From Eledone cirrhosa (taxonomy: Eukaryota): 64,000 nucleotides of DNA. Numbering within the stretch: position 1 is the first letter of the stretch; each line of letters opens with the position of its first letter. The DNA is taken from assembly GCA_964016885.1 (NCBI GenBank), contig OZ024745.1:61194001-61258000 (forward strand), written 5' to 3'. The notes under the pieces are model-generated. The model ran no database searches. It worked only from the letters and a program-made list of their open reading frames with translations, and was not told the origin of the DNA. Both the position numbers and the translations under genes were made by a program. Of this stretch, positions 1-3,978 are shown one piece after another.

Positions 1-1052
1 GAACCATTGATTCAGCTAGCGATAATCCGGTGTAGGGGACGGCTGCCTCTTCTACCAATGATACGTCCGGAACGAAGTTGTAGGCGACTTTGAAGGCTAG
101 AGCGTCCACAAGCGCCTCTTCTACATATCCCGGCTCTATGTTTCTTGAATCAATGAATCTCTTGTCCTTGTTCAGACATCCAATCATTCCATAAAACGTG
201 TGCAGGTAAGGGTTCGATCCCACAGAGAAGACACACTTATCTATCAGTCCCAAGGACTTCTGATAAGGGAAAATCCCTGTTTCCGAAGCTCCTGCATTTA
301 GGGACCTCAACATTCTCGTTATTTCGTTCGCCCCGGCTTCATTTATCATTAGGTAAAGCAGATCGGAGATGGTCAAATTAAGAATATTCATGAAGTGATT
401 CAGAACTTCGATTATGTGCATGCCTTCGTATCGGGCCAGTATAGTTCCTCTTCGCAGTAATGACAAGTCATGTGCATTATAGTTACCTGAAATGATCATT
501 TTTCACAATATGACTCAGGAAGCCGTTAAGAAGCATATCCTGATCATACCGATAAGGATGTGTCATCCTATAATTGTTAAAAGTTTTTATTATATTCTGT
601 TTATAGTCGCCGACTTCCAGACTTGTCCCCGCATTTACTACCTTATAAAGGGTGACGATATAAAGTAGTAGTCCGAGATGGTGATTTTGAGTGGACGTTG
701 TTGCGGTGGGTGTGGGGAAGCTGGAATTCTCGGTGATGGTGAAGAAGTCTGCAGGAGTGACTGTATTCTTTTGTCGAATAAAACTGTAATTCTGCAGATC
801 AGCATTAATATCGAATTTTAGATAAGACTGGCAATACCTGATCATGAAGTGTAAGATGTGTTTTGGTAGAATTTCTTGTGTGTTTGCCTTGGTTTGAATG
901 AAGTCGTGAGCCGCGTTAACATCTCCCCCAGAGAAGATGGTTACTTGCTGGGGCTGAAAGGATTCAGAATTAAAAACGTCAAAGTCCTTAGTCGTCTTGC
1001 TAAGGCTAAATTTCAGCTCCTCATGACCAGTGGAATTGGAAGAATTAGACAT
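1..1052 (-). pseudogene. Endogenous rhabdovirus-like (Mononegavirales) nucleoprotein N gene, frameshifted near 483, running off the window start
   Basis: The 189-aa ORF 1052-483 ends ..KNDHFR*. Manual translation of the shifted frame from 481 to 1 is open: YNAHDLSLLRRGTILARYEGMHIIEVLNHF..EAGANEITRML..GIFPYQKSLGLIDKCVFSVGSNPYLHTFYGMIGCLNKDKRFIDSRN. This is colinear with vesiculovirus N motifs RYGTIVSRFKDC, SYMPYLIDFGLSSKSPYSSVKNPAFH and RSTRARNAR. It is intronless and more GC/CpG-rich than the host introns. Confidence 0.85.
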
Positions 1053-2009
1053 AATGGATTGAAGGATTATAAAGACAACAGTAAAATACGATAAATCCGT
1101 GTTGTCTAATTATTAACATTAAATGTTAATGGTAAGTGTTGTAAGAATAGCTGTGGACGAAGCTATTATGGTAGTTTACCAGAGCTGGCAAGAAGATGAT
1201 GGGTAGGCGAGGAAATGTTGGCCTCCCAGATGTATTGCCGAATGTGCTAGGGAGCTAGGAAAAAATGGCCGGCCGCTTTGATAAGAAAAAAAGCAAGCTG
1301 AGCGATATCCAATTTTAGCCGCTTACTACAATGTATGAGGCTATTCCAACAAATTTACATTCCCCTTTTTTTAGCCGTTAAAAGAAATATAGATTTATGC
1401 CGCTTACTTGCTGTAGTTGCTGCTTACTTCAATGTATGAGGCTATTCCAACAAATTTACATTCCCCTTTTTTTAGCCGTTAAAAGAAATATAGATTTATT
1501 TATTGTTTTTTTTTTGCGATTTATTTGCTACTGGGGCATAGATTTCTTTATTTGCCCCTTCTTTGTTTGTTTTTTTGCGATTTATTAGCCTTTTGGGGTC
1601 ACACACACCCCCGTAGAAAGTGTGCGACCTTTCTGCCAGGGAGCACAGAGAGAGGGGGGGTGCTCCCTTCTTCTCTTACCTGTACAAGCCGATATAGAGA
1701 GATGGCCCACTTACACGGGCCATTATTGCTACTTTCACCCATCTTTCATGGAATTGGCTGGGACTGAGTGCCTTTTTCTCCACCTTGATCCTTCTTTCGA
1801 AGTGGTATCGGAAGAAGAGGACCATTTGTTGGCCGGCGACATATCCCCACAGTTTCCTCGTTGCAAACGCATCTGGGACATTTCTTTTCCAAGGGGTTTC
1901 CGTCCCGGAATCCGTGTCTGTAGAGCCTTTCCCGAACGGGCAGGGCCCCTCGGTATAATAGTAAGTATTAGTGGTTGTAATAAAAATGCAATCAAAATGT
2001 AATAAATAC

Positions 2010-2145
2010 CTCCACTGATTTCTTTCCTTATATTATCAACAGAAGTTGGTATGTCACCCAAAGTTCGCTTTGTATGTTCCCGAATAGCAGTGAATTTTGA
2101 TAAAACTGTTTCTAATTCCTTCTCCAGAGTAAGACAAATATCCAT
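2010..2145 (-). pseudogene. RMND5: Captured first coding exon of an RMND5-like gene (left arm, inverted copy)
   Basis: Reverse complement of 2319-2454 with a few substitutions (R/K, E/G) and the same GTATTT donor. Confidence 0.75.
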
Positions 2146-2318
2146 GTGTAGTCCAAAAAGATATAAATCTTTAAAAAAATTATAATAATTCTTTATTATT
2201 ATTTTCTTTTTCTGTAAATAATTATTTTTCTATATATCTCAAACCCTGCCAAACACCACATCTGTCTATCTGTAAATTTAAATGACTGTTCTTTCATACT
2301 TATCCTCTTCAACTACAC

Positions 2319-2454
2319 ATGGATATTTGTCTTACTCTGGAGAAGGAATTAGAAACAGTTTTATCAAAATTCACTGCTATTCGGGAACATACAAAGCGAA
2401 CTTTGGGTGACATACCAACTTCTGTTGATAATATAAGGAGAGAAATCAGTGAAG
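2319..2454 (+). pseudogene. RMND5: Captured first coding exon of an RMND5/GID2-like CTLH E3 ligase gene (right arm copy)
   Basis: MDICLTLEKELETVLSKFTAIREHTKRTLGDIPTSVDNIRREISE resembles the vertebrate RMND5A N-terminus (MDQCVTVERELEKVLHKF..). It ends at a phase-1 donor GAAG|GTATTT, after which the similarity stops. Confidence 0.75.
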
Positions 2455-3179
2455 GTATTTATTACATTTTGATTGCATTTTTATTACAACCACTAATACT
2501 TACTATTATACCGAGGGGCCCTGCCCGTTCGGGAAAGGCTCTACAGACACGGATTCCGGGACGGAAACCCCTTGGTAAAGAAATGTCCCAGATGCGTTTG
2601 CAACGAGGAAACTGTGGGGATATGTCGCCAGCCAACAAATGGTCCTCTTCTTCCAATACCACTTCGAAAGAAGGATCAAGGTGGAGAAAAAGGCACTCAG
2701 TCCCAGCCAATTCCATGAAAGATGTGTGAAAGTAGCAATAATGGCCCGTGTAAGTGGGCCATCTCTCTATATCGGCTTGTACAGGTAAGAGAAGAAGGGA
2801 GCACCCCCCTCTCTCTGTGCTCCCTGGCAGAAAGGTCGCACACTTTCTACGGGGGTGTGTGTGACCCCAAAAGGCTAATAAATCGCAAAAAAACAAACAA
2901 AAAAGGGGCAAATAAAGAAATCTATGCCCCAGTGGCAAATAAATCGCAAAAAAAAAACAATAAATAAATCTATATTTCTTTTAACGGCTAAAAAAAGGGG
3001 AATGTAAATTTGTTGGAATAGCCTCATACATTGAAGTAAGCAGCAACTACAGCAAGTAAGCGGCATTTAGGCCGCTAAAATTGGATATCGCTCCCGATTC
3101 GAACATTCCAAATGTTAAGCCACTCCACATAGCCATTAAAACGAATGGCGAATTCAAATAGGCTGCGTTTTCATACCTA

Positions 3180-3431
3180 ATCACGTCGGGTCACCAATTT
3201 AGCAGAGAGTTATATTTTGAGAGTTGTAATGTCGCCACGAGGAACCATCTTTGGTAGAAAGATATGATAGGAATATCGACAATGACTTTAGCTTGTTTTA
3301 CATAATTTATTAACAAAGGTTAAGAAGTGAATTAAGCTGGCATGCCAGAATAATGAAATAATTCAATTAAGATTACAAGAGAAAATACGGTCGTTTGGCC
3401 AGGTCCGTAGTAAAATTGTTGTGTCGTTACA
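3180..3431 (-). mobile_element. LTR (3431-3198) plus tRNA-Trp primer-binding site (3196-3180) of a Gypsy-like retrotransposon
   Basis: The minus strand begins TGTAACG, contains AATAAA and ends ..CTGCTAAA (degenerate CA end). One nt later comes TGGTGACCCGACGTGAT, the complement of the tRNA-Trp 3' end with one C lost. Confidence 0.7.
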
Positions 3432-3850
3432 TATTGTTCCTCCTCCTCATCATCATCATCATCATCCTTCTTCTTGAGAGGGTTGTGGCGGGCAGAGTCC
3501 TCAAATACTCCTTCGAGTAGGTTCTGTCAGAACCAACCATCTTGCTCGAGGTCTGCCCCTAGGTCTCTTGCCCATAAAATCTGTCCAGCGATTCTTTCCT
3601 GAGACATTGAGACATTCTAACCACATTTTTATTTTATTTATTTTTTATCGGAGGTGGAGTGGGGTAAAATAAAAGAAATTATGTTTAAAAAGATTGTTTG
3701 AATGTTTATATCTTCATGTCTTCAATATTACATACCACAAAACAGAATTGTATTTTTATCCTCTGAAACATAACTTTAAAACAGTGAATATTATGATGAA
3801 GAGATTGCAAGAATTAGTGTCTTTTCATGGTTCTGATATTTTCTTCCCAG

Positions 3851-3978
3851 AGTGCCGACAGATTCTTCTTCCTATGATCTTGACTCACACATCTGAACTG
3901 CTGAACAACAAACGAGAAATGCCAGAATGTGCCAATGTTCTCAGTGATATCTTGGACAATTTCTACTGCACAAGAAAT
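3851..3978 (+). CDS. DOCK1: DOCK exon ([25 protein letters not shown])
   Basis: CCCAG acceptor, GTAATT donor; resembles DOCK1 DCREILLPMM. Confidence 0.9.

Follow-up and report, generated by a model that had tools for sequence, protein, structure and literature searches.

The stretch of Eledone cirrhosa DNA analysed here (64,000 nt of contig OZ024745.1, assembly GCA_964016885.1, positions 61,194,001 to 61,258,000; hereafter the window) raises the question of how a gene of an RNA virus came to be joined to a retroelement inside a host gene, and what it could do there. A preliminary description had proposed that a viral N gene occupies the gag position of an LTR element lying antisense in a host intron, with DOCK exons before the window. 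Its account of the host gene was borne out. In this 3.0-Gb genome, DOCK exons on the + strand flank the insertion on both sides, and the nearest two correspond to consecutive positions of the PF23554 profile, 192-225 upstream of the window and 228-262 at 3851..3978 (+ strand, E 1e-5, with splice sites), with compatible splice phases; a PDB sequence search with a DOCK exon gave no useful match. The exon at 3851..3978 closes a single 5.07-kb intron (about -1224 to 3850) that contains the whole insertion, whose 3.6 kb make up most of it. Both outer ends of the insertion lie within purine-rich repeats, and the insertion site is the GAT/GAG tail of a very high-copy host repeat (3439..3620, minus strand), recognised from its sequence and read depth. 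With DOCK on the + strand and N on the minus strand, N is antisense to DOCK pre-mRNA.

The viral part is a rhabdovirus N gene on the minus strand with its own ATG at 1052, in agreement with the preliminary description. Its 5′ frame (483..1052, minus strand, 189 codons from the ATG) has matches at the other N loci in this genome, a PDB sequence search with this frame giving no useful match. The 3′ frame (1..502, minus strand, continuing beyond position 1 of the window as far as a stop at about -141) matches PF00945 at E 2e-14, or, taken whole, at 1.9e-17, above the cut-off, and also matches rhabdovirus N structures in PDB. The assembled copy is split by one frameshift near 485-500, where the 5′ frame ends. 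Upstream of the ATG lie a viral gene-start motif (AAC...) and a 5′ UTR (1053..1103, minus strand); a similar motif opens N at locus L063 and the next gene at L064. Past the stop come a 60-nt 3′ UTR, a run of nine A's at about -200 to -208, placed where L061 carries its gene-end run, and then the host purine-rich repeat, with no next viral gene beyond the A-run. Running from start motif to gene-end A-run and no further, the insert amounts to a complete transcription unit, which is what copying from an mRNA would give. Homology to rhabdovirus N above the PF00945 cut-off identifies the locus as a rhabdovirus-derived, non-retroviral EVE.

Word-index protein searches found no relative of this N, and a full HMMER scan recovered the relatives that they had missed. 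The nearest named proteins come from Octopus bimaculoides and Argonauta hians, and named viral N proteins are 23-28% identical to it. In a quick tree of 36 rows (5 EVE frames, P0001-P0004 and the 27 proteins of at least 380 aa among P0005-P0040), nine rows including the O. bimaculoides and Argonauta proteins formed a clade with SH-aLRT 100 and no named virus. The locus thus records an octopod rhabdovirus lineage with no named virus among its close relatives. Such sequences are already in databases, since UniRef auto-names one O. bimaculoides protein a rhabdovirus nucleocapsid domain. A literature search found no report of a cephalopod rhabdovirus EVE, and the supplements of broad EVE screens could list such loci; as far as that search shows, the host group, the viral clade and the antisense-biased series of legible junctions described below are new.

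Short-read contigs of runs X1 and X2, which may derive from the assembly's own sample, span N and its 13-nt join to the element, ruling out an assembly artefact at that join; the outer joins, masked as repeats, are bridged by no contig. A second allele appeared in runs X2 and X3, distinguished by two substitutions and by its length at the frameshift break. RAD reads of another study placed 7, 4 and 2 reads on N in three further samples, and the second allele at the break accounted for 3/3 reads in X4 (one start place), 0/4 in X5 and 0/1 in X6. The insertion is therefore present on both S1 alleles and in three more samples, and the break segregates and is not fixed. Lying between consecutive DOCK exons, on two alleles in S1 and in reads of 3/3 further samples, the rhabdovirus sequence is integrated in host DNA and inherited.

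The retroelement side of the preliminary description stood only in part. The sequence at 3198-3438 belongs to an LTR repeat family with 822 candidates genome-wide, of which 40 were scored, many of them paired about 2.4 kb apart. The family LTR is 455 bp long and starts with TGTAG, its elements have a PBS and a polypurine tract (PPT), and 4-bp target duplications were exact in 7 of the 8 elements examined. A scanned copy is non-coding (no frame above 117 codons), and one family copy, possibly a mosaic of two families, bears Ty3 gag (DUF7041), protease, RT, RNase H and integrase. The LTR proposed at 3431-3198 is thus a genuine member of a repeat family, but the window holds only the 3′ part of this Ty3-type LTR (3198..3438, minus strand, positions 201-455, first 200 bp missing, 235/240 aligned bases identical to a family LTR), so that the TG at 3431 is internal and not the LTR start. 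A PBS-like motif does follow it, as had been claimed (3180..3196, minus strand); families B and E carry the same motif behind their LTRs, and we take it to be complementary to tRNA-Trp. A tRNA scan of the window found none. Next comes a remnant of the element's leader, about 90 bp reaching element position 560 (3093..3179, minus strand).

The roughly 250 nt before N had also been described as leader. The segment at 1117..1301 (minus strand) matches element positions 1983-2169 of 2862 at 93% identity, which is 3′ internal sequence between pol and the PPT. These 185 bp lie about 240 bp ahead of the element's 3′ LTR and downstream of pol in the gag-pol copy, so N is joined in sense to the element at position 2169 of 2862, and not in the position of gag; 1053-1300 is unrelated to the element's leader. 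The apparent gag position is an artefact of this misread segment and of a deletion, since 1.42 kb of the LTR element are missing where a fold-back sequence lies.

This fold-back (1300..3093) is a young, high-copy DNA transposon with terminal inverted repeats, represented by 3184 candidates whose top copies are 96-98% alike. Its 767-bp arms, 98.4% alike, confirm the hairpin that had been noted between LTR and N, but it is an unrelated transposon and contains transposon sequence only, with no viral sequence. A Pfam search of four fold-back ORFs gave no match. The family has GG-type ends and 8-bp target duplications, exact in three of six other copies and with one mismatch in two of six. Because the window copy has no target duplication, we infer that the deletion occurred adjacent to its insertion. 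Before this fold-back-associated deletion, N would have lain about 1.7 kb behind the PBS. Within the intron the fold-back would form long dsRNA, a likely ADAR substrate.

At the far side of N, neither a PPT nor a second LTR nor a 4-bp duplication follows the gene, which ends in its own UTR and nine A's, and no LTR terminus was found at either end of the locus. A matching second LTR was absent upstream for all five families tested over 16 kb (L011, L023). A search for other family copies cut at LTR position 201 returned one match, the window locus itself, and with no copies piled up there nothing supports the idea that the copy stops at the start point of the RNA. The window copy is single and not an intact mobile element.

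Protein searches of the whole genome returned at least ten N loci, which shared junctions reduce to eight capture events. Nine of the ten loci, or seven of the eight events, abut LTR elements. The first adjacency test employed only two element sequences, taken from the search with the window's LTR, and four of the seven other events (L058/L065, L059/L060, L061 and L063) abut these within about 35 bp. With the same two sequences, only 1 of 40 arbitrary 10-kb stretches had any match, and 0.11% of their bases were no more than 150 bp away from a match. Two more events (L064/L067 and L062) abut other LTR families, found from their flanks; with all families the control gave 2 of 40 stretches and 0.30% of bases. 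Chance adjacency was ruled out by these control stretches, the control for families D and E being lenient since they were found afterwards from flanks. A 64-codon N fragment on C25 had no LTR neighbour among the families tested. Two of the seven LTR-linked events (the window and L063) are in sense to the element and five are antisense, mostly in the order front of LTR, antisense N, then 3′ internal sequence, PPT and LTR. At L061 and L063, 4-bp target duplications flank the LTR ends, which points to insertion by integrase; ends of this kind are missing from the window copy. Compared with the other N copies, the window N has pS of 0.80-1.0 (saturated) and dN of 0.08-0.24, and it is single in the genome, with 68-71% nucleotide identity to the closest other locus. 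Saturated synonymous sites with low dN indicate that the divergence arose in viruses under selection, and that the window copy is a separate capture from another viral lineage. All in all, the window locus is an LTR-retrotransposon/virus recombinant, joined beyond chance.

The individual captures differ in structure. L061 (3617-5821; G000:C2:55.886-55.888 Mb) begins with the first 181 bp of a family-B LTR, whose terminal T-run adjoins the viral gene-end A-run; N follows in antisense, then 3′ internal sequence and finally a complete LTR, with the 4-bp duplication at the outer ends. L063 (4171-7794; G000:C2:336.02 Mb) is a two-LTR element with PBS, gag, protease and 4-bp target duplication, in which sense N, running from its gene-start motif and 3′-truncated, stands in place of RT, RNase H and integrase, that is, of most of pol and not of gag. 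L058 (4189-5892, C4) and L065 (4234-5995, C5) share the same two junctions in different flanks, and their LTR repeats within a copy are 97% and 100% alike, respectively; this chimera looks to have been re-copied. Between their N sequences 17 of 31 substitutions are synonymous (null 8.6, P 0.0008; 12/23, P 0.009, without a cluster of 8), an unexplained excess that may reflect selection after capture or exchange with related viral RNA. L064 (4160-6356, C2:47.05 Mb) and L067 (3782-5990, C219) likewise share a chimera in different flanks, with no synonymous excess (6/15, P 0.2). Their viral part covers the end of N, a 2-nt spacer and the beginning of the gene that follows, and it runs antisense to a PPT-like tract and LTR of family D; family D as an LTR plus leader in sense was ruled out, as the PPT-like tract and TGTAG start give the opposite orientation. 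At L059/L060 (G000:C28:117.477-117.485 Mb), antisense half-N and LTR-family pieces form a 1796-bp unit that is present in five tandem copies, next to a gag-pol element. At L062 (3194-5734, C2:46.93 Mb), the first ~170 bp of a family-E LTR are followed by antisense N; this family carries the Trp-type PBS motif.

How, then, was the window chimera formed? Our preferred account, which we hold to be reasonably probable, is that N was copied by the retrotransposon RT with a template switch, that the product entered the genome independently of integrase, and that fold-back insertion and deletion followed. In a Ty3 particle, cDNA synthesis would start at the viral A-tail and proceed by copy-choice to the mRNA 5′ end, where RT would jump to element RNA at position 2169 and continue towards the element's 5′ end. 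Such a product, with no integrase ends, would enter the purine-rich repeat tail by repair or LINE-type insertion, and the fold-back transposon would later insert with loss of 1.42 kb of the LTR element. Copy-choice is supported by the shared polarity of N and element, by the mRNA-like ends and by the LTR adjacency of seven of eight captures, and of the two readings in the preliminary description the template-switch chimera is the more probable one; the N of L063 also begins at the gene-start motif. For the antisense class, PPT-primed plus-strand DNA might jump onto viral mRNA, which the T-run/A-run join of L061 fits, or minus-strand synthesis might jump onto viral genome-sense RNA, which the gene junction of L064 fits.

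The join itself leaves room for another route. Between N and the element lies a 13-nt linker of unknown origin (1104..1116, minus strand), the first 5 nt of which lengthen a short hairpin formed with the end of the element; with this fold-back linker and no microhomology at the junction, a DNA-repair join would also fit. Capture at the DNA level or by a LINE appears credible but appreciably less probable: N cDNA, made by LINE or LTR RT, would have been patched into a break in a resident intronic LTR element whose 3′ end was lost, or A-tailed RNA would have undergone target-primed LINE copying, as for bornavirus EBLNs. Such an origin would agree with the linker, the A-run at the 3′ end, the purine-rich target and a 10-bp, one-mismatch duplication that can be read at the outer ends within the purine-rich repeats and may be due to chance; EBLNs have poly(A) and target duplications (PMC3205384). 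It requires, however, separate losses of the LTR front and the 3′ LTR, and alone it leaves unexplained why seven of eight captures abut LTR elements, two of them with 4-bp duplications at the LTR ends. The preliminary description had also entertained a mobile non-autonomous LTR element in which N replaces gag and is expressed from the LTR. The LTR piece, PBS and N are indeed colinear and in sense, but the segment before N is 3′ internal sequence, the LTR is 5′-truncated and accompanied by no PPT, second LTR or 4-bp duplication, 1.8 kb of fold-back separate it from N, the assembled allele is frameshifted and no other locus carries the same N, so that such an element is contradicted at this locus and highly improbable. 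The window chimera is likely an inert germline fossil; "inert" is judged from where it lies and from its damaged parts, and against it stands the segregation of an allele with a different break.

Recombination between viruses and LTR elements is an established finding in Aedes (10.1101/127498, PMC6797480, PMC8048955). The window locus resembles the Aedes EVEs in that rhabdovirus sequence is joined to Ty3 elements in the same polarity and copy-choice has been proposed (10.1101/127498, PMC6797480); unlike them, it is dispersed, intronic and outside any LTR-dense piRNA cluster, and its junctions are legible. In Aedes 543/614 nearest LTRs have the same polarity (10.1101/127498), whereas 5/7 LTR-linked captures here are antisense, two figures that are not strictly comparable since the former counts nearest neighbours. 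In mouse, LCMV-IAP recombinants likewise combine the cDNA of an RNA virus with an LTR retrotransposon in integrated form (PMC3205384), but they are somatic and experimental, whereas the window locus is germline and polymorphic. The EBLNs attributed to LINE-1 in the same source share with it an N gene copy ending in an A-run, and differ in that the window N is fused 5′ to an LTR element and its possible duplication lies in purine repeats. The dog-whelk N EVE (PMC6085071) is also molluscan, limited to N, in DNA form and transcribed antisense; piRNAs have been shown there, while for the window locus it is the genomic context that is known. With these findings, the capture of RNA-virus genes through LTR elements, known from insects and mouse, extends to a cephalopod. 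Their weight comes more from the genome-wide series than from the window locus, the junctions being legible enough to test how EVEs form, with regard to template, strand and use of integrase.

As for activity, LTR-driven expression of N from the assembled allele would be unlikely, since the LTR front is gone, the 1.8-kb fold-back precedes N and the frame is broken. Whenever DOCK is transcribed, the intron would contain RNA antisense to N, which is most likely broken down along with the rest of the intron. Whichever way the chimera arose, we consider it rather unlikely that the locus is a heritable source of antiviral small RNAs, in which DOCK pre-mRNA would be cut by piRNAs against LTR or fold-back sequence and would feed antisense N piRNAs. 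The antisense intronic position is established and the insertion is shared by both S1 alleles and the three other samples, but it sits in an intron of a conserved gene, introns are mostly nuclear, the hairpin holds no viral sequence and a cognate live virus is hypothetical. LTR content is sparse, with one other fragment of the four families tested in the 64-kb window, although it is small RNAs that properly define a piRNA cluster; LTR family E is represented by fragments at 51822-52843. Precedents keep a small-RNA role conceivable: the dog-whelk rhabdo-like N, a probable EVE, yields negative-sense 5′U RNAs with a peak at 28 nt (PMC6085071), in Aedes one EVE restricts its virus in ovaries (PMC7522710), and molluscs that have been studied show ubiquitous PIWI/piRNA expression (PMC6128900). 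Whether cephalopods have EVE-based immunity could be tested with one small-RNA experiment.

A wider reading of the series is rather doubtful. Trp-primed Ty3 elements of octopods may have taken up an undescribed cephalopod rhabdovirus lineage again and again, in most cases through a jump that sets antisense viral sequence directly after the LTR promoter (LTR front, then antisense N, then PPT-LTR; once with the LTR T-run meeting the viral A-run, and a 4-bp duplication). Such chimeras could be copied again and, with the intronic antisense copy, would make up a heritable store of antisense RNA directed at that virus, dispersed and lying outside classical piRNA clusters.

Viral genes other than N were also sought. 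A glycoprotein family search of the genome gave 0 matches and had no positive control. Mononegavirus L polymerase EVEs were present at four loci with 7 matches (L068/L069 at C3:130.160-130.165 Mb, C23:16.22, C3:37.50 and C27:17.0 Mb), and the largest of them lies antisense, within about 200-500 bp of Ty3 pol and 3′ UTR.
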